A stretch of DNA of 10,179 bases. Origin: Janibacter sp. GXQ6167 (GTDB lineage: Bacteria; Actinomycetota; Actinomycetes; Actinomycetales; Dermatophilaceae). Positions 1,715-9,919 of the stretch are shown here, in pieces (position 1 is the first letter of the stretch; each line of letters begins with the position of its first letter). The stretch covers positions 2,555 to 12,733 of the forward strand of contig NZ_JBGFSK010000017.1 of the NCBI RefSeq assembly GCF_041365945.1. The letters are read 5' to 3'. Made by a program: the position numbers and the translations under genes. Under the pieces are notes generated by a model that saw only the letters and a list, made by a program, of their open reading frames with translations, did not search any database and was not told the DNA's origin.

Positions 1715-2329
1715 GTGGCCGCGCGAGTCGTCGATGTGCGTTGTCCGGGATGCGGGAGCGCCTGGAGCACCAACCAGCAGTTCTGCCAGTACTGCGGTCG
1801 CCAGGTGCTGATCAGCTCGATGTCCGACCTGATCAGCCTGGAAGCGCGCGACCTCAAGAAGCACGTCCGTACCTACGAGGACGCGCTGGACGAGGGCGCC
1901 GATGATCCGAGCGTGCATGCGGCGCTCGGCATGTGCCTGCTCAAGCTGGGGCTGCGCGACAAGGCGCTGTCGCACTTCGAGGATGCGCTGCTCGATGACA
2001 TCGAGAACTCGGAACCGTACTTCTACGCCGCCGTCGCGTCGCTGGGTGGCAAGAAGCCGTTCCTGGTTCCGCTGGCTGGCATCCGCCGCGCGGAGGAGTA
2101 CCTCACGGCGGCGCTGCGGCTCGAGGAGCGCGGAATCTACGCCTACCTCTACGGGTACATCCGCTTCGACTACTACGAGCGCAAGTCGCTGAACGTCGAG
2201 CCGTCGTACCAGCACTACCTGCAGCAGGCAGTGCTTCGCGGTGTGACCGATCTGGACATCCAGACGCTGTTCGAGCTGCTGGAGATCGTCCCTTCGTCCG
2301 CTTCCATTCCGACCAGCGTTTCCGCCTGA
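1715..2329 (+). CDS. Zinc-ribbon (CPGCG-x9-FCQYCG) plus alpha-helical TPR-like domain protein. Alternative starts are ATG 1661 (possibly leaderless) or GTG 1706.
   Basis: ORF 1523..2329. GGAGG at 1702-1706 lies 8 nt before GTG 1715. N-terminal CxxC...CxxC zinc ribbon followed by helical repeats (LGMCLLKLGLRDKALSHFEDALL...YAYLYGYIRFDYYE). High GC3 from 1715 onwards; codons between 1661 and 1715 are rare (ctt, cta, aga, agt). Confidence 0.7.
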   Translation: MAARVVDVRCPGCGSAWSTNQQFCQYCGRQVLISSMSDLISLEARDLKKHVRTYEDALDEGADDPSVHAALGMCLLKLGLRDKALSHFEDALLDDIENSEPYFYAAVASLGGKKPFLVPLAGIRRAEEYLTAALRLEERGIYAYLYGYIRFDYYERKSLNVEPSYQHYLQQAVLRGVTDLDIQTLFELLEIVPSSASIPTSVSA

Positions 2330-2365: not shown

Positions 2366-3061
2366 ATGGCCATCAACTATGAGCGCAACAAGAAGTACTT
2401 CAAGCAGTCCAGCCCCAAGGCCGGCATCATCCTGATCGTGATCGGCCTGGTGCTGACGCTCGCCCTCCCCGAGGCGGGCAAGCTCGTCGGCATCCTGGGC
2501 ATCCTGGGTGGCGCGGCGCTGATCTACTTCCAGTTCGCGGGCAAGCCGAGCGACGCGGACATCGACTCGGACGCTGCTGCCGCCATCGCGGACGTGAAGA
2601 AGCGCGCGCTGGGCAAGCTCGGTCTGGACGAGGACGAGGTCAAGCTCATCGACCCGGTGATCGTTCACGGCTACTACTACAAGAACATCGCCTCGGGCGT
2701 GCAGGTCAAGCTCGGCAAGGACCGCGTCTTCCGTTCCTCGAACTACGAGGGCGTCGTGCTGTTCTTCAGCGAGCACCAGCTGCACGCGTTCAAGTTCCAG
2801 TTCTCTCTCGTCTCGCCGCAGGAGAGCCGCGAGCAGACCGACGAGTACTTCTACAAGGACGTCGTGTCGGTGGCGACGCAGTCGGAGACGTTCAAGATCA
2901 ACGACATCAAGGGCAACAGCCAGCAGGTCAACTTCGAGGAGTTCAAGCTCACCACCACGGGTGGCACCTCGATCACTTCGTCGATCCGCGACGAGGGCTC
3001 GGTCAGCCGCGTCATCTCCGGCGCGCGCAGCCTGATTCGCGAGAAGAAGATCGCGTCCTGA
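2366..3061 (+). CDS. Membrane protein: two N-terminal TM helices followed by a soluble ~170-aa domain of about 170 aa (possibly a bacterial PH-like / membrane-flanked domain); function unknown
   Basis: ATG 2366 with GAGAGAGG upstream. Hydrophobic stretches IILIVIGLVLTLAL and LVGILGILGGAALIYF. High GC3. Co-directional, 36 nt after the previous gene. Confidence 0.75.
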   Translation: MAINYERNKKYFKQSSPKAGIILIVIGLVLTLALPEAGKLVGILGILGGAALIYFQFAGKPSDADIDSDAAAAIADVKKRALGKLGLDEDEVKLIDPVIVHGYYYKNIASGVQVKLGKDRVFRSSNYEGVVLFFSEHQLHAFKFQFSLVSPQESREQTDEYFYKDVVSVATQSETFKINDIKGNSQQVNFEEFKLTTTGGTSITSSIRDEGSVSRVISGARSLIREKKIAS

Positions 3062-3115: not shown

Positions 3116-3156
3116 ACCAATTCCGCTGCCCGAGCGTGACGTGAGGAGTGTGCCGT

Positions 3157-5841
3157 ATGCCCGCAGGCGACGCGCCCCTGACGTTCACGCCTCTCGCGCA
3201 GGGTGAAGTAGCCGCTGCTACGGTGGTCGAGGTCGTCCGCATCCCGCACGTCTCCGTGCTGGGCGATGATCCGGCTGCCGAGCTGGTGCAGCAGTCCAAG
3301 CGGGACTTCGTCAGCCTGCTGTTCGAGGCGTACCAGTCGTACCGCGGACAGTACGAGGACGGCCCCGACCGAGCTAGCGACTGCGCTCTGGAACTGCTTT
3401 GGCAAGCACACCCCATTCAGGGCCAGCCGCACGCCGCCGACCTCACGCTATTCATCATCGTTCGCGCGATCGGCGCGAACCGGGACGACGCAGCGGCGGT
3501 TGTCAACGAGCTGCACGCTGTCGTGATCAGCGCGCTCACGCTCGGCGGCTTCGACTACGCAGATCGTCCTGCCTCCGCGATCGGCGCCCAGGCGGCGGAA
3601 CGGTCGGTTGCGCTCGTGAAGGAGGAGTGGATTGAGAACCTCGGCAACCAGATCCTGCCGAGCGCCTTCGCCTTCCACCGTATCCCCACGGGCAGCCGTG
3701 ATCTCTCACGTATCGCCAGCGCCCTAACCGAGGTGCCCGGTGCGTCCCTCTCGGTTCAGCTGATCCCGGCGACACTGGAGCCTGACGAGCGGACTGCTAT
3801 CGAGCAGCTGACGCTGGCGCTCACGACCCTCGCCAACGGTGTGACGGATCAGTCGATCGGTACCGTCAGCTTCACCGCGGCGAAGCGCCTCGCGGAGATG
3901 TACTCGTATCTGGAGGGGCACAAGGACTCGCCCCTGTTTCTGTTTAACGTCGTCGTCTCCGGGCCGAAGCTCGCCGTGCCGGTGATCGCCAACCGGGTGC
4001 TCGGTCACCTCTCCGCCGACGCCGAGGTAGGCGCGCTGGCGGCACGCTTCGTCGACGCCACAGCCCTGGTGCCACGAGGCGATGCGTCCTTCGTCGCTGC
4101 ACCGTGGCAGCTGAACGAGACGCTGCTCGACCAGACTCGTGATCCGTCGCTCTGGGCGGCGGGCCGCAATCCCGGTGAGGCATTCTACCGGCTGCCGTTC
4201 CTGCTGACGGCATTCGAGGCATCGGAGTTGTTCCGTCTGCCGATCGGCAGTGACACGGTCGGCGCCGGGCTGACGGTGAACACCACGACCCGGCACTCGC
4301 GCAACTACTCGGCCGGCGTGATCGGGAGCTCGAGCATCGAAGCCGGGCGACTCGCCGGGGCGGCCGAGGTCTCGATCGGGTTCGGGCATACCGACCTGAC
4401 CAAGCACGCTTTCGTCACGGGGACGCCCGGTTCGGGTAAGACGACGTTCACGGTCGGGCTGCTCGACCGGCTCTGGCACGAGCACGGCATCCCGTATCTG
4501 GTGATCGAGCCGGCGAAGAACGAGTACCGGGCGCTGATCGAGACGACGCCGGATCTGCAGGTGTTCACCCCGGGCAAGGATCATCTGTCTCCGCTTGTGC
4601 TGAACCCGTTCCTGCCGCCAGCGGGCGTGCGGGTGCAGAGCTACAAGTCGACCCTCAAGACGGCGTTCGCAGCCGCGGTCACGATGACGAGCCCCCTGGA
4701 CAAGATCTTCGAGGACGCCCTCTCAGCCACGTACTCGCGGTTTGGCTGGTTCGATGCCGACACAGCCGCCGATGGCCGTGAGGTGTTCTCTATCCGCGAC
4801 TTCCTGGCCGTTTTCCAGGAGACCTTCGTCCGCATCGGCTACACCGGAGACGCGGCCAACATCGGACGAGCAGGCCAGGTGCGCCTGCAGAGTCTGGTTG
4901 GCCTGTTCGACACCTACCCTTCGATCCCTGTCGAGGATCTGCTGTCGAAACCCACGGTAATCGAGCTGGCAGGGATCGAGAACAGCGACGACAAGGCCCT
5001 CTACATCGCGCTCATCCTGCTGCAGGTCCTCGCCTACGTGAACGCCAACGTCGCCGGCGACGGGAAACTCAAGCACGTCCTCCTGCTCGAAGAAGCCCAC
5101 GTCTTGCTCGACGCCGACGACGCCAGCGGACCGGGCGAAGCGGACCCCGCCGCGATTGCGAAGAAGCTGCTCAAACGCATGTTGGCCGAGATCCGCTCCT
5201 ACGGCGTCGGCATCATCGTGGCCGATCAGTCGCCACGCAAGGTCGGCTCGGACGTGGTGGCGCTCACGAACATCAAGCTCGGGTTCCGGCTGGTCGAGGC
5301 CGCAGACAAGGAGATCCTGGCCGAGAGCACCAACATGAGCGACGCGCAGCGCGAGCGGCTGGCGCGGCTCCGGCCGGGCGAGGCACTCCTGTTCTACGAC
5401 CGCCTCGAAGACCCCGAGGAGATCGCCACAGCCGACTGGCGCGCCCAGCGCGGCATCCCGACGTTCGTGTCCGATGAGGAGATCGCCCGAAAGGTCACTT
5501 ACTGGCAGCGGCACCCGGAACTGCTCATGCCATACCCGGAGAGCGCCTACATCGGGGGCTGGGACGCCTCGGTTGCCGGTGCGGGCAAGGAGATCGCCCG
5601 GCGCCTCTTCGCCGCGCACGTCCCGGCCGGCGATGTCGGCGTCAAGAGATTCGGCAGCATCTACCGGCAGCTCGATGCGTTCATCGCCGCCGAACTTCCC
5701 GCGTCGATCCCGAACACGCCGGCCCTGCGGCGAGCGGTCAAGGTCAACTTCCTGCGGCTGGTCAAGTACGAGTCGCAGATCCCACTGTCGGACGCCACGA
5801 TCCACAAGACCCTCGAAGCCGAGAGGAGCCGCACAGCATGA
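3157..5841 (+). CDS. FtsK/HerA-superfamily (DUF87 / HerA-like) P-loop ATPase of about 894 aa, with a large (~420 aa) N-terminal region of unknown function
   Basis: Walker A HAFVTGTPGSGKTTF (about aa 425). DEAH-like Walker B VLLLEEAHVLL. The blocks LVIEPAKNEY and GIIVADQSP also fit HerA/VirB4-type ATPases. GAGGAG at 3143-3148 lies 8 nt upstream of ATG 3157 (the ORF track began at GTG 3148). The stop overlaps the next start (ATGA). Confidence 0.85.
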   Translation: MPAGDAPLTFTPLAQGEVAAATVVEVVRIPHVSVLGDDPAAELVQQSKRDFVSLLFEAYQSYRGQYEDGPDRASDCALELLWQAHPIQGQPHAADLTLFIIVRAIGANRDDAAAVVNELHAVVISALTLGGFDYADRPASAIGAQAAERSVALVKEEWIENLGNQILPSAFAFHRIPTGSRDLSRIASALTEVPGASLSVQLIPATLEPDERTAIEQLTLALTTLANGVTDQSIGTVSFTAAKRLAEMYSYLEGHKDSPLFLFNVVVSGPKLAVPVIANRVLGHLSADAEVGALAARFVDATALVPRGDASFVAAPWQLNETLLDQTRDPSLWAAGRNPGEAFYRLPFLLTAFEASELFRLPIGSDTVGAGLTVNTTTRHSRNYSAGVIGSSSIEAGRLAGAAEVSIGFGHTDLTKHAFVTGTPGSGKTTFTVGLLDRLWHEHGIPYLVIEPAKNEYRALIETTPDLQVFTPGKDHLSPLVLNPFLPPAGVRVQSYKSTLKTAFAAAVTMTSPLDKIFEDALSATYSRFGWFDADTAADGREVFSIRDFLAVFQETFVRIGYTGDAANIGRAGQVRLQSLVGLFDTYPSIPVEDLLSKPTVIELAGIENSDDKALYIALILLQVLAYVNANVAGDGKLKHVLLLEEAHVLLDADDASGPGEADPAAIAKKLLKRMLAEIRSYGVGIIVADQSPRKVGSDVVALTNIKLGFRLVEAADKEILAESTNMSDAQRERLARLRPGEALLFYDRLEDPEEIATADWRAQRGIPTFVSDEEIARKVTYWQRHPELLMPYPESAYIGGWDASVAGAGKEIARRLFAAHVPAGDVGVKRFGSIYRQLDAFIAAELPASIPNTPALRRAVKVNFLRLVKYESQIPLSDATIHKTLEAERSRTA

Positions 5842-7019
5842 GCGACTACGGCACCGACATTGCAGACGCCCCCGTCGACACCGGCGCGGACGTCAGCGTG
5901 CCCGATACGACCGACTACGCCGACGAGCCGGTCGACCTGGCCGAGACCCCGCCCGAGTCGGAGGCGCCCGAGGCCGAGGAGGCGCCGCCCGCCGAAGACC
6001 TCTCGGAGCCCGCAGCAGATGAACTGAGCGGCACGGCGGAGACGCCGGCGGATGCGGAGGCACCCGTCGACCTGGGCGCGGCCCCGGAAACGGCCGACGC
6101 CGCCCCGGAACAGCCCCAGGACTGGCAGGAGGGCGAGGTCGTCGATCTCGGCGACGACGCTGCCCCCGACGCCCCGCAGGAGGACGAGACCGCCGAGGCG
6201 GACGATCCTGCCGGGCGCGACCTGGGTGATCCCGACCTGGCCGACAGCCCGGAGGCCGAGGCTCCCACGGATAGCGCCGGTGAGGATCTGACGACACCGA
6301 CGGACGACGAACCGGGCGCCGGTGATGCGCCGACTGACGCCGACGAGCAGGTACCTGAGGCGGCGGAGATTGAGCCCGAGGCCGCAAACGACGTGACGGA
6401 TGCCGAACCCGAGCCCAGGGTCGATGAGTTGACAGAGGCGGCCCGGGATGAGGCCCGCCCCGCCGACGAGCTGCGCGCCGAGTACTACGCCGACGTGGCT
6501 GATGTGCTGGCCGATGACACACCATCCGACGCCGAGCCGGTCGAGACGCAGGACACTCCCGGAGCAGACGCTGCCGAGGCGCCGGAGTCGAGCGATCACG
6601 CGGACGCCGCCAATGACCGCAGCAACTCCCCAGAGAACGAGGCACTGACCTCGGCGCTAGCCGAGAAAGGCCTGTCGCTGGAGCCGGTCGATCGCTTCGA
6701 CTACAGCGACAACCCGGTTCTCGGCTACCGCGAGTCCGCCCCGCCCGAAGACGTCGCGTACGCCGTCAACGCCTGGAACGACGAGATCGCGCCCGGCATC
6801 GCGGCCGGCGCGACCCGTGAGGACTTCGCCGCCTACGACCAGGAGCACGGCCTCGAAGGGCAGCGGCAGCTGGCCGGCGTCTACGACTACATGCTCGGCG
6901 GCGACGCGATCAAGAGCGGCGGAGAGCGCGAGGACGGATCGCTCGACGTCACCGGCGGCAGGCACCGCCTGGAACAGGCGCGTCTGAACGGCGTCCAGTA
7001 CCTGCCCGTGAGGAAGTAG
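5838..7019 (+). CDS. Highly acidic protein: about 270 aa of D/E/P/A-rich low-complexity (disordered) sequence followed by a ~120-aa globular C-terminal domain ending in a ParB/sulfiredoxin-like GGRHRLEQARLNG motif
   Basis: ATG 5838 overlaps the TGA of the ATPase gene (translational coupling). GAGAGGAG lies 9 nt upstream. The C-terminus reads DVTGGRHRLEQARLNGVQYLPV, compared with the ParB/Srx consensus h-x-G-[EG]-[RH]-R-x-x-A-x-x-x-G-x-x-x-IP. High GC3 throughout. Confidence 0.75.
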   Translation: MSDYGTDIADAPVDTGADVSVPDTTDYADEPVDLAETPPESEAPEAEEAPPAEDLSEPAADELSGTAETPADAEAPVDLGAAPETADAAPEQPQDWQEGEVVDLGDDAAPDAPQEDETAEADDPAGRDLGDPDLADSPEAEAPTDSAGEDLTTPTDDEPGAGDAPTDADEQVPEAAEIEPEAANDVTDAEPEPRVDELTEAARDEARPADELRAEYYADVADVLADDTPSDAEPVETQDTPGADAAEAPESSDHADAANDRSNSPENEALTSALAEKGLSLEPVDRFDYSDNPVLGYRESAPPEDVAYAVNAWNDEIAPGIAAGATREDFAAYDQEHGLEGQRQLAGVYDYMLGGDAIKSGGEREDGSLDVTGGRHRLEQARLNGVQYLPVRK

Positions 7020-7056
7020 CCGACCCGGCATCCGATCCGACGAAAGCGAACACCGT

Positions 7057-8256
7057 ATGAAGATCTACGACGTCATCAAGAACGAGACCGGCCTTCTCAA
7101 CGACGGCCTGGGCTCGAAGGCCGTGCTGGCGTGGAAGTTCACCGGTGAGGACTTCAACGACAACACGCAGCTGATCGTCTCCGAATCGGAGGAGGCGATC
7201 TTCATCCGCGACGGCATCGCCGTGGCGACCTTCGGCGGCGGCCGCTACACGCTCAACAGCAACAACCACCCCTTCATCGGCAGGCTGAGGAACCTGCTCT
7301 CCGGCGGGGTGAGCGCGTTCAGCTCGCGGGTGTACTTCGTCAACATCGATCACAAGTTGGAACTGCTGTGGGGCACCGACAGCCCGATCCAGCTCCGCGA
7401 CCCGGTCTGGAGCCTGCAGACCAGCGTGCAGGCGCGCGGCTCGTACTCGATCCAGGTGACGGACTCCAAGAAGTTCCTGATCAAACTGCTCGGCACCAAC
7501 ATCCAGGTTTTCGACGAGCAGCAGCTCGCCGGCTACTTCCGCAGCGCCTTCTCGCAGCACATCCGCGGACAGATCGCCCGCTACATCCGCGACTCCGGCC
7601 AGGAGATCCTGGAGATCACCTCGGACATCGAGCTGCTGGCCGAGCAGCTGCACCCGAGGCTCGCACCGCTGCTGGATGAGTACGGCGTGAAGCTCGTCAA
7701 CTTCTACATCGCCGCGATCGACATCCCCACCGACGACCCGAACCGCCAAGTGCTGGAGAACTCGATCGCACAGAAGCAGGCCAAGCTGCAGAGCGCGCAG
7801 GGCGATAAGGCCGTCATGGGGCTGCTCGGGGAAGACTGGGCCAGGCAGCAGTCGGCCACCATCCTCACCGAGCTCGCCAAGAACCCCGGCGCGGGTGGCG
7901 TGGCTTCCGCGGGTGCCGCAGCAGGCGTTGGCCTGGCTGCGGGCAGCGTCTTCGGGGAGATGGCGACGCAGATGTTCACGCGCCCCGTCCAGCCCGCAGG
8001 CGACCCGATGGCTGGCAATGTCGGGCGCAACCGCACATCGCGCTTCTCGCCCGCAGAGCCTGCCGCGCCGGCCGCCGCCGAGACGTGTCCGGGCTGCGGC
8101 GCGAGCGTGGCGGCGGGAGCGAAGTTCTGCCCGGAGTGCGGCAACCGTCTCGCACCTCAGCAGGTGCCCTGCTCGGGTTGCGGAACCGCAATCGCGAGCA
8201 CGGCCAAGTTCTGCCCCGAATGCGGAACGCCGAACAACCAGGGAGCATCCTCATGA
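7057..8256 (+). CDS. SPFH/band-7 (stomatin-prohibitin-like) domain protein with two C-terminal zinc ribbons (COG4260-like membrane-protease-subunit family)
   Basis: N-terminus MKIYDVIKNETGLLNDGLGSKAVLAWKF...SESEEAIFIRDGIAV. The C-terminus carries CPGCGASVAAGAKFCPECG and CSGCGTAIASTAKFCPECG. The stop overlaps the next start. Confidence 0.8.
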   Translation: MKIYDVIKNETGLLNDGLGSKAVLAWKFTGEDFNDNTQLIVSESEEAIFIRDGIAVATFGGGRYTLNSNNHPFIGRLRNLLSGGVSAFSSRVYFVNIDHKLELLWGTDSPIQLRDPVWSLQTSVQARGSYSIQVTDSKKFLIKLLGTNIQVFDEQQLAGYFRSAFSQHIRGQIARYIRDSGQEILEITSDIELLAEQLHPRLAPLLDEYGVKLVNFYIAAIDIPTDDPNRQVLENSIAQKQAKLQSAQGDKAVMGLLGEDWARQQSATILTELAKNPGAGGVASAGAAAGVGLAAGSVFGEMATQMFTRPVQPAGDPMAGNVGRNRTSRFSPAEPAAPAAAETCPGCGASVAAGAKFCPECGNRLAPQQVPCSGCGTAIASTAKFCPECGTPNNQGASS

Positions 8257-8930
8257 CCCGCACGATCCTGCGCGCCATCCTGTGGCTCGTCCCCATCGCC
8301 GTCTACGTCGCCATCTTCCTCATCCTCGAGGCCCCGCAGGGCGCGACGTTCTGGACGTCCGCACTGCTGCTGGCGTTCGCCTACGTCATGCTCGCCGTCA
8401 GTTTCGTCGCCGTGCCGCGCAGTCGGATAGCCGCGATCCTGGCCATGCCCCTGATCCTGGTGGCGAGCATCTACTTCACTGCCGAGCTCATCGCGGCCAG
8501 CATCTTCATCTACGTGCAGGACATTCCATACCCGTGGGTGATCATCACGCAGCTGATCCTGGCCGCGATCTTCCTCGTCGTGTTCCTCACCACCTTGTTG
8601 TCCAACGAGGCCATCGCCGCCCAGATCGAGACCCAGCACGCCGACGTCCTGGTGATCAAGAGCGCCGTCACCCGCATCACGGCCCTGGGACGTGTCGCCC
8701 ACGATCCGCGCCTGGCGAAGTCGCTGGACGGGCTGGCCGAGGAGTTCCGCTACAGCCCGACGATGCGCTCGAACCAGGTGCGCGAAGTCGACGCGCAGAT
8801 CGCCGTGCAGCTCGAGCGACTGGAGAGCCTCGTCCACATCCAAGCTTCGCAAGAGGATACCGTCGGCCAGATCGCGGCGATATCCGGGGCGCTCGCTTCA
8901 CGCAACGAGGCGATCAAGCTCCGCCAGTAG
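8253..8930 (+). CDS. Integral membrane protein (about 4 TM helices) with a C-terminal amphipathic / coiled-coil cytoplasmic domain; translationally coupled partner of the SPFH protein
   Basis: ATG 8253 overlaps the TGA of the SPFH gene (tcATGA). Hydrophobic segments LWLVPIAVYVAIFLIL, LLLAFAYVMLAVSFVAV, AILAMPLILVASIYF and ITQLILAAIFLVVFLTTLL, followed by a helical tail (QIAVQLERLESLVHIQASQEDTVGQIAAISGALASRNEAIKLRQ). Confidence 0.75.
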   Translation: MTRTILRAILWLVPIAVYVAIFLILEAPQGATFWTSALLLAFAYVMLAVSFVAVPRSRIAAILAMPLILVASIYFTAELIAASIFIYVQDIPYPWVIITQLILAAIFLVVFLTTLLSNEAIAAQIETQHADVLVIKSAVTRITALGRVAHDPRLAKSLDGLAEEFRYSPTMRSNQVREVDAQIAVQLERLESLVHIQASQEDTVGQIAAISGALASRNEAIKLRQ

Positions 8931-9376: not shown

Positions 9377-9919
9377 TCAAGGCCGGGGCGAACTCCCGAG
9401 CAGGGCGTGCAGCTGATGGCTGGCTGGTGAGACGGCGCGAATGCGGGTCTCGTGGAGGGCGGGGTCGTGCGTGCGCAGGTACATCGCCCAGAACGCCGCG
9501 TCGGCATACGTTGTGTGCAGATCTGACTGCGCCCGCCAGCCGCTCGAAGCGGTGCGCCGGTAGCCGACTTCGTAAGGGCCGCCATGCAGGAGTTCCTGCA
9601 CGAGTGATGCCGGGACGTCACCGACCGGGTAGGTGCTGCCGATATCGCCCACGAGGAGCACGTCGCCGTGCAACGCCGGCCGCTGCCTTGAAGTGGTGTC
9701 CCAGAACCAGCGCAGCGACGAGGCGCGCAGGTTCATCGGGAGCCCGTTTCGGCGGTCGTCGGCGTCGAGCCACATCGTGACACCTCGGCTCTCGATGTCG
9801 ATCGGGATCACCAGATCAGCGAGCTGCTGAATGTCTGCGAACCCTGCGACCTCCCGCGTTTCGAGTTGTTGCTCGATCTGCGCCGGGATGAGAACAGCCG
9901 TGACGGTCTCACCATTCAC
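9377..9919 (-). CDS. DUF3846-family protein (a small family common in actinobacterial phages and integrative elements) with a ~80-aa C-terminal extension
   Basis: GTG start at 9919 with GGGTGAG upstream. The N-terminal 100 aa (TAVLIPAQIEQQLETREVAGFADIQQLADLVIPIDIE...GVTMWLDADDRRNGLPMNLRASSLRWFWD...GDVLLVGDIGSTYPVGDVPASLVQELL) fit my recollection of the DUF3846 pattern (VxPADG...VxE...LxxLxxxVGGxIE...xWxNEEGxLxxLPxNxxAT.L). Confidence 0.65.
   Translation of the reverse strand: MNGETVTAVLIPAQIEQQLETREVAGFADIQQLADLVIPIDIESRGVTMWLDADDRRNGLPMNLRASSLRWFWDTTSRQRPALHGDVLLVGDIGSTYPVGDVPASLVQELLHGGPYEVGYRRTASSGWRAQSDLHTTYADAAFWAMYLRTHDPALHETRIRAVSPASHQLHALLGSSPRP

Follow-up and report, generated by a model that had tools for sequence, protein, structure and literature searches.

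A 2025 review treats the VirB4 ATPase as a signature subunit of every type IV secretion system (T4SS) described so far, and mentions neither SPFH proteins nor DUF87 (PMC12857230). In TrwK, the VirB4 of R388, an N-terminal domain (NTD; residues 15-400), a C-terminal domain (CTD; 400-760) and a tail (760-823) are distinguished, and the NTD forms the VirB4 dimer and binds VirB3 and the tails of VirB8 (PMC9259494). The X-T4SS of Xanthomonas and Stenotrophomonas, which contains VirB4, is a machine for the delivery of antibacterial toxins that have paired immunity proteins (PMC6759196, PMC6536674). The secretion system of type VII (T7SS) has an FtsK-like motor that is scaffolded by a flotillin (PMC5718613). 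Here we describe a cassette in Janibacter sp. GXQ6167 within a stretch of 10,179 nt (contig NZ_JBGFSK010000017.1, positions 2,555 to 12,733; the whole stretch is called the window below), which encodes an 894-aa P-loop ATPase of the VirB4-like/HerA class (3157..5841, + strand) beside a hyper-acidic protein, an SPFH protein and a protein with about four transmembrane (TM) segments. The ATPase is a sequence-divergent VirB4/HerA-class motor that is encoded outside any T4SS, together with hyper-acidic and often toxin-tipped proteins of an apparently new class.

The open reading frame (ORF) of the ATPase was listed on the + strand from a GTG at 3148 to 5841. We prefer the ATG at 3157 as its start, since GAGGAG lies 9 nt upstream and the homologues start with MP. 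Both motifs named in the initial annotation of the sequence are real and were located in the product: GTPGSGKTT, the Walker A with lysine K428, spans aa 422-430 (nt 4420-4446), and LLLEEAHVLL, the Walker B, spans aa 642-651 (nt 5080-5109). When 52 full-length homologues that share 47-93% identity with the window protein are aligned (mean column identity 65%), G422-K428, T430, L644-L651, D690, Q691, S692, P693 and R694 are invariant, as are many positions across the first 400 residues; another landmark of the core is the invariant stretch ADQSPRK (nt 5221-5241). The gene is therefore under selection over its whole length. These residues point to a conserved P-loop enzyme, presumably an active one, and not to a chance ORF. 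The Walker B had been called DEAH-like. The EEAH is instead a HerA/VirB4-type Walker B and not the DEAH-helicase motif, as the HerA chains 8wiv and 4d2i align here with LEEAH and IEEAH.

By sequence, the core of the ATPase is closest to HerA. Its sole Pfam assignment is the DUF87/HerA central domain (PF01935) at aa 394-618, with 29.1 bits against a cut-off of 23.2. The best matches in PADLOC 2.0, all over the core, are to mad8 (9e-17), several HerA models and DndH (7e-5). The NCBIfam matches are to CedD and HerA models and lie far under the cut-offs (for HerA 37.2, 35.9 and 31.9 bits against 800, 800 and 970). Sequence (phmmer) and profile searches of the PDB returned HerA chains only, over aa 600-765 with E from 1e-9 to 1e-6. 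The full-length protein had no significant match to VirB4 profiles (Pfam CagE_TrbE_VirB, TraC_F_IV and AAA_10; NCBIfam VirB4), and no such profile was among the matches of 20 NTDs of the family at E <= 10; the sole trace of a VirB4 profile is NF045975 VirB4_plasma at the P-loop, with E 0.007. Hence the initial placement of the protein in the FtsK/HerA superfamily is borne out by the Pfam, PADLOC, NCBIfam and PDB matches to the core, and the alternative P-loop families considered with it, STAND and ABC, were tested by profile search, the ATPase belonging to neither.

The N-terminal region has no such relatives by sequence. There was no Pfam, NCBIfam or PDB sequence match to aa 1-390, and Pfam was null at E <= 10 for the 20 family NTDs as well, in agreement with the earlier statement that the ~420 aa before the P-loop are unassigned. 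A search of 1.84 billion representative proteins with the NTD profile returned 311 clusters, all of the same ~860-945-aa architecture or fragments of it. The fold, on the other hand, could be predicted. AlphaFold2 with the family alignment modelled most of aa 10-370 of the full-length protein confidently, and aa 1-385 alone reached a predicted local distance difference test score (pLDDT) of 83.3 and a predicted template modelling score (pTM) of 0.87. With Foldseek as an independent approach, all 13 matches of the NTD model with E <= 1e-3 were TrwK chains (E ~1e-6, probability 1.00), with an identity of only 9-11%. Because the query contained no P-loop domain, and neither RecA-like ATPases nor the CTD-only VirB4 structure 4ag5 were among the matches, it is the NTD of TrwK that was matched. 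HerA chains align with the ATPase part only.

In the model, the protein is divided into an NTD of two alpha/beta subdomains and a helical part (aa 1-372; 3157..4272), a linker of short beta strands with low model confidence (aa 373-417, pLDDT <50 at aa 377-417; 4273..4407), a RecA-like core (aa 418-760; 4408..5436) and a C-terminal helical domain specific to the family (aa 761-893; 5437..5838), all on the + strand. The division 1-372 / 418-760 / 761-893 almost matches the TrwK layout. No HAS-barrel before the P-loop was seen in the model, in which ~45 low-confidence residues link the NTD to the P-loop domain. The N-terminal region is therefore predicted to have the VirB4 NTD fold, and would serve for docking and oligomerisation rather than as a nuclease, NADase or sensor; it is specific to this ATPase family and has diverged from VirB4 past sequence recognition. 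Two claims of the initial annotation are overturned by this comparison. A Walker A at residue ~430 had been considered unusually deep, yet it is normal for a VirB4-type ATPase, because the domain limits of TrwK (NTD 15-400) are similar. The extra ~300 aa had been expected to form an effector or sensor module (nuclease, NADase or substrate-binding), a proposal that does not accord with matches to TrwK chains only. Agreement with a VirB4 N-terminal domain, which the initial annotation had named as an outcome that would overturn its proposal, is found at the level of fold but not at that of sequence, where identity is 9-11% and the VirB4 profiles are null.

The C-terminal region was correctly described as unassigned by sequence, with ~130 aa in place of the ~150 estimated: aa 761-893 have no Pfam, NCBIfam or PDB sequence match and no relatives outside the family. 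A helical domain is nevertheless confidently predicted there (pLDDT 75-91 in 10-residue blocks of aa 761-890). It is the sole net-basic domain of the protein: its median net charge is +7, while the NTD has -14 and the ATPase core -10, and K/R are conserved in it at positions 762, 811, 815, 816, 867 and 870. Most family members carry in this domain a cysteine cluster, PYPxCxYxxxCxxxC, which is possibly metal-binding; the actinobacterial clade, to which the window belongs, has lost it (S at position 796). Taken together, the modelled VirB4-fold NTD, the FtsK/HerA/VirB4-class core, in which both Walker motifs are intact, and the basic helical C-terminal domain characterise the ATPase as a predicted VirB4-like motor.

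Directly downstream of the ATPase gene lies the gene for the hyper-acidic protein of 393 aa (5838..7019, + strand), the start of which overlaps the ATPase stop in an ATGA. An acidic gene adjoins the ATPase gene wherever the sequence continues downstream (at two loci the flank is too short), its start mostly lying within ~30 nt of the ATPase stop, and it is present also in the deepest ATPase branch (31-33% identity). The acidic proteins range from 67 to 1374 aa across loci, with 18-53% D+E and K+R mostly below 10%; in the window protein, aa 1-250 comprise 34% D/E and 2% K/R. Their N-termini follow the pattern M-[DSG]-[DE]-x-[FY]-D-x-S-x-D (55 sequences): 87% have D/E at position 3, 71% have an aromatic residue at positions 4-6, and the first 40 aa have a median net charge of -13. 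Their C-termini differ from locus to locus and in many cases bear a toxin domain. Pfam recognised Gln_amidase (2.8e-13), TNT (6e-6), WHH (4e-13), Colicin-DNase (2e-22) and Endonuclea_NS_2 (6e-21) among them, and further examples include zincin-type and C39-like peptidase domains. A conserved N-terminal region with variable C-terminal toxin domains is the layout of polymorphic toxins. Some loci have two tandem acidic cargo genes. Behind genes of the deamidase and peptidase types there are small ORFs of 74-164 aa, for which Pfam gave only weak matches, to Imm-NTF2-2 (E 0.03) and SUKH (E 0.02).

The window acidic protein has a C-terminal domain of ~140 aa with the ending TGGRHRLEQARLNG. Its C-terminus (6588-7016) ends DVTGGRHRLEQARLNGVQYLPV, and that of locus L059 (13043-13642) ends GDGRHRVLAARDQGLDFPAV; the two share weak similarity (26% identity over 149 aa). 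For the window domain there was no Pfam match and no PDB match, and the homologue search was empty. Its 'GGRHR' recalls the 'GxxRxxA' boxes of ParB/sulfiredoxin, and at the level of a motif guess the domain might be ParB/Srx-like.

A highly conserved pair directly follows the ATPase gene at many loci (L085-L090, L015, L047, L049, L051, L054 and L068), namely a ~220-aa acidic zincin with HExxH (DUF6782/SprT-like) and a 98-aa protein, and a second, toxin-bearing acidic protein often comes after the pair. The 98-aa family comprises 444 clusters at ~80% identity, has no Pfam match and lies inside the cassette at every locus examined. In appearance the two resemble a processing peptidase and its partner rather than a toxin with its immunity protein.

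The remaining constant partners are encoded next in the window. An SPFH protein of 399 aa (7057..8256, + strand; Pfam Band_7_1 E 1.3e-33, DZR 2.4e-10) ends in a double zinc ribbon, and a 225-aa protein (8253..8930, + strand) has a helical tail and approximately four segments that are hydrophobic and TM-like; the SPFH stop overlaps the start of its gene. The 4-nt ATGA overlaps thus couple the ATPase gene with the acidic gene and the SPFH gene with the 4-TM gene. Where 6 kb or more of sequence is available downstream, the SPFH gene is found at 41/41 loci and the gene for the ~225-aa 4-TM protein at 40/41. The ATPase is obligatorily linked to the acidic protein with its swappable toxin ends, to the SPFH scaffold and to the small polytopic membrane protein. 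Three other genes are frequent but movable accessories, as counted over 33 loci: a Zn-ribbon-TPR gene in 19, a gene for a 213/231-aa protein in 18 (by BLAST) and a YidD-like gene in 10. Across 64 loci, the Pfam domains of the flanking genes and a BLAST comparison of synteny brought out only the acidic protein, SPFH, 4-TM, TPR, 213/231-aa and YidD-like genes. No VirB3, VirB6, VirB8, VirD4 or pilin genes were found by Pfam or BLAST in the flanks examined, where very divergent structural analogues could escape, and a relaxase with MobC was seen in these flanks beside one Firmicute copy only. The five window partners had no PADLOC match at E <= 0.01; of the partner homologues at locus L001, the SPFH protein only gave a marginal match, to LeoBC (E 1.2e-4). 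No description of the set of ATPase, acidic protein, SPFH and 4-TM genes was found in the open-access full-text literature, and the cassette is apparently undescribed.

Two accessories lie upstream of the ATPase gene in the window. The Zn-ribbon and TPR protein of ~204 aa (1715..2329, + strand) has an ORF open from 1523 and a homologue-supported GTG start at 1715; its Pfam DZR and TPR matches are all under the curated cut-offs, there is a weak match to the LcrH/SycD chaperone, and it is 87% identical to the protein of L006 and 39% to that of L001. The 231-aa protein (2366..3061, + strand) has an N-terminal TM-like stretch (aa 14-59) and then a conserved domain of ~170 aa; the family has no Pfam match, and the PDB was null by sequence and profile. 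An alignment from 27 loci separates two forms of this 213/231-aa family. In the first (the window, Kiritimatiellia and some Clostridia) a conserved YF motif precedes a hydrophobic TM hairpin, and the second has no TM and a short segment that ends in a conserved 'GC', several members starting with MGC. These two N-terminal forms could represent alternative membrane anchoring, perhaps by lipidation. A zinc-ribbon coding motif, (A/Q)(K/Q)FC(P/Q)(E/Y)CG, is found at 1775-1797 in the TPR protein and at 8119-8141 and 8203-8225 in the SPFH tail. Firmicute SPFH homologues carry a tail with a SHOCT motif in place of the zinc ribbon.

The ATPase family is large and widespread. More than 1600 clusters (at 90% identity) of ~890-aa proteins match it end to end, and the actinobacterial query shares 47-50% identity with members from Firmicutes, Bacteroidota, Spirochaetes, Planctomycetes, Verrucomicrobia, Kiritimatiellia and Fibrobacteres. 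The family occurs in at least eight phyla, across which identity is 45-50%, and many of the records are metagenome-assembled genomes (MAGs) associated with the gut, rumen or termites. The persistence of 47-50% identity across these phyla implies that the family has spread horizontally. The cassettes lie in variable regions beside integrases, insertion sequence (IS) elements, NACHT and E1-like genes, and one Firmicute copy is placed between an integrase and a relaxase/MobC pair. In this horizontally mobile cassette the ATPase is the constant motor. Carriage by plasmids and phages is rare. There was no full-length match in 72,556 plasmid records, and viral or phage carriage amounts to one locus in IMG/VR and two partial matches in phages. 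The best plasmid match is a distant 963-aa relative with 34% identity over aa 195-800 on the mobilisable Priestia megaterium plasmid pN447-3.1 (L083, 7221-13694). Its gene too is succeeded by one for a large acidic protein with repeats (1135 aa, D+E 28%), and no SPFH gene is annotated nearby.

The window itself has a G+C content of ~66%, and its closest relative in genome collections is an uncultured Actinomycetota MAG (83% identity). To the left of the cassette, pieces of an ISL3-family transposase (Zn_ribbon_ISL3 match) and an integrase fragment lie at 538-1123 and 1204-~1653 on the - strand. The fragment comprises the N-terminal SAM-like and central parts of a phage-type integrase, without the catalytic domain. 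The cassette appears to adjoin a decayed integration module, perhaps one truncated by the IS. Just to the right, at 9377-9919 on the - strand, a 180-aa protein has a DUF3846 domain (E 1.7e-5, under the Pfam cut-off). The tRNA and repeat scans of the window gave nothing relevant.

How the cassette differs from the described systems may now be stated. With VirB4 (TrwK of R388; TraB/TrbE/CagE) the ATPase shares a ~400-aa NTD, a RecA-like CTD whose Walker A lies near residue 420-440 and a tail at the C-terminus, but its basic helical C-terminal domain is longer, the identity is 9-11%, and it is encoded with an acidic protein, SPFH and 4-TM rather than with VirB3/6/8/D4 or pilins. HerA (HerA-NurA, and the Sir2-HerA and DUF4297-HerA defence systems) is closest by sequence and has the EEAH Walker B too, and the defence HerA is likewise paired with swappable enzymatic effectors. 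However, the ATPase described here has a VirB4-type NTD in place of the HAS-barrel, and there is no NurA, Sir2 or DUF4297 partner in the window or at related loci. With the C-terminal ATPase of DptH/DndH, from Dnd phosphorothioation-dependent restriction, and with mad8 (of MADS) only the ATPase core is common, size and architecture being different, and no Dnd, Dpt or other mad genes lie near the cassette.

The T7SS resembles the cassette in having an FtsK/HerA-superfamily motor, small substrates, some of them with C-terminal polymorphic toxins and immunity genes, and a dependence on an SPFH scaffold, the flotillin FloA (PMC5718613). EccC/EssC have three P-loop domains against one in the ATPase here, which also does not show the tandem P-loops with an FHA or TM N-terminus that mark these motors. 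The T7SS substrates are WXG/LXG helical hairpins, whereas the candidate substrates here would be disordered polyanions, and EccB, EccD and EssA/B homologues were not seen with the cassette. The X-T4SS is a complete VirB1-11/VirD4 apparatus in which VirD4 recognises the effectors via a C-terminal XVIPCD, while the cassette has no VirD4 and the conserved part of its putative cargo is the N-terminus.

Based on these analogies, we consider it the likeliest explanation, with even chances, that the ATPase is a membrane-docked motor which handles or exports the acidic protein. The 231-aa, 4-TM or YidD-like proteins would be the membrane partners to which the NTD docks the ATPase ring, in a patch organised by SPFH; this step is suggested by the docking of the VirB4 NTD on small membrane partners. 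A hexameric motor, possibly by means of its basic C-terminal domain, would then engage the polyanionic N-terminal region of the acidic protein and spend ATP to unfold and translocate it across the cytoplasmic membrane, and toxin-tipped versions would be delivered against competitors. Export is proposed by analogy with the T7SS and from the logic of polymorphic toxins, in which the N-terminus specifies the route. The TPR protein may act as a cytosolic adaptor or chaperone.

Several observations weigh against an export motor of VirB4 type. The assignment of the NTD rests on a predicted structure, and by sequence and fold the core is as near to the defence ATPases (DptH/DndH, mad8 and the HerA of Sir2/DUF4297 systems) as to VirB4. 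A recognisable channel (VirB6, VirB8 or VirD4) was not found in the cassette by Pfam or BLAST, and much the same cassette is present in both diderm and monoderm phyla without an outer-membrane component. No toxin domain can be recognised in many of the acidic proteins, those of Bacteroidota and some Clostridia. The nuclease-type acidic genes (WHH/Colicin-DNase, Endonuclea_NS_2, ParB-like) lack an adjacent immunity-like ORF, the SPFH gene following them directly (L025, L048, L059, L071, L088, L089 and the window, at 7019-7057), an arrangement as compatible with self-killing effectors as with toxins that are exported. Further, the ~80% conservation of the 98-aa ORF is unlike that of fast-evolving immunity genes. 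The main rival explanation is an intracellular abortive-infection or anti-plasmid defence, in which a membrane ATPase senses or is loaded by invading DNA, in the manner of HerA/DptH-type ATPases, and frees or activates a tethered toxin inside the producer, the acidic region being a cis-inhibitor or DNA mimic that silences the nucleases. Such a system would account for the PADLOC best matches (mad8, HerA models and DndH) and for the nuclease effectors without adjacent immunity ORF; effector swapping and horizontal gene transfer across phyla are typical of defence genes, and the cassette shares its variable regions with integrases, IS, NACHT and E1-like genes. It is less easily reconciled with the small ORFs after the deamidase and peptidase toxins, which with their weak Imm-NTF2-2 and SUKH matches are like polymorphic toxin-immunity pairs, with the tandem cargo genes of some loci, or with membrane partners and a VirB4-type docking domain, which are unexpected for a cytoplasmic DNA sensor. 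The window partners match no PADLOC model, and the near absence from phage and viral collections is a further point, although defence systems need not be phage-borne. We consider the defence account rather unlikely.

The other explanations are weaker. The obligatory SPFH (Band_7_1) and small membrane proteins, the YidD-like insertion factor at many loci and the many acidic proteins without a toxin domain could suggest a membrane-maintenance or stress module like the PspA/YdjI-type SPFH systems, with an ATPase that remodels or extracts membrane proteins, a structural or regulatory acidic protein and no role in conflict; the extraction of pilin from the membrane is commonly ascribed to VirB4. 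This is improbable, as bona fide toxin domains are repeatedly fused to the acidic protein and the patchy, transfer-driven distribution in islands is unlike that of housekeeping stress systems. Still less probable is a true T4SS remnant, in which the ATPase would be the ordinary VirB4 of a conjugative or mobilisable element that has degenerated or diverged very far, with unrelated cargo as neighbours. The VirB4-like architecture, the Firmicute cassette between integrase and relaxase/MobC, and the integrase and IS remnants on the left flank of the window would be expected of such an element, but VirB4 sequence profiles were null, VirD4, VirB6 and VirB8 were not detected by Pfam in the flanks examined, the same neighbours are conserved even at chromosomal actinobacterial loci without relaxase, and the family is rare on plasmids. 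As for the HerA-type ATPase with an acquired N-terminal effector or sensor of ~300 residues (nuclease, NADase/Sir2/TIR or substrate-binding), the core is indeed nearest to HerA by sequence (Pfam DUF87, PDB HerA chains) and the N-terminus has no sequence-family match. The TrwK match contradicts it at fold level, the NTD is never found apart from the ATPase family, and the variable enzymatic domains are on the neighbouring acidic protein rather than on the ATPase, which leaves this explanation scarcely credible.

Returning to the export motor, it is possible, and we propose it tentatively, that the cassette is a previously unrecognised minimal protein-export pathway, a new type of secretion system, and a lineage that links HerA-like ATPases to VirB4 motors. 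VirB4 is regarded as the universal, defining ATPase of T4SSs, and the family described here is a large one of VirB4 architecture outside T4SS gene sets. If the proposal is true, the family would provide a handle on the origin of VirB4-type motors from HerA-like ancestors and on the role of the NTD. The hyper-acidic leader would be a new N-terminal 'address' for a set of gut-bacterial toxins with DNase, deamidase, NADase and peptidase domains; inter-bacterial competition is the usual setting of such polymorphic toxins. Similarly, the cassette would offer a compact system of four to seven genes in which FtsK/HerA-class motors could be studied on polypeptide rather than DNA, together with the role of an SPFH scaffold. 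If the cassette is instead a defence system, it would represent a new membrane-associated immune module of the HerA/VirB4 class.

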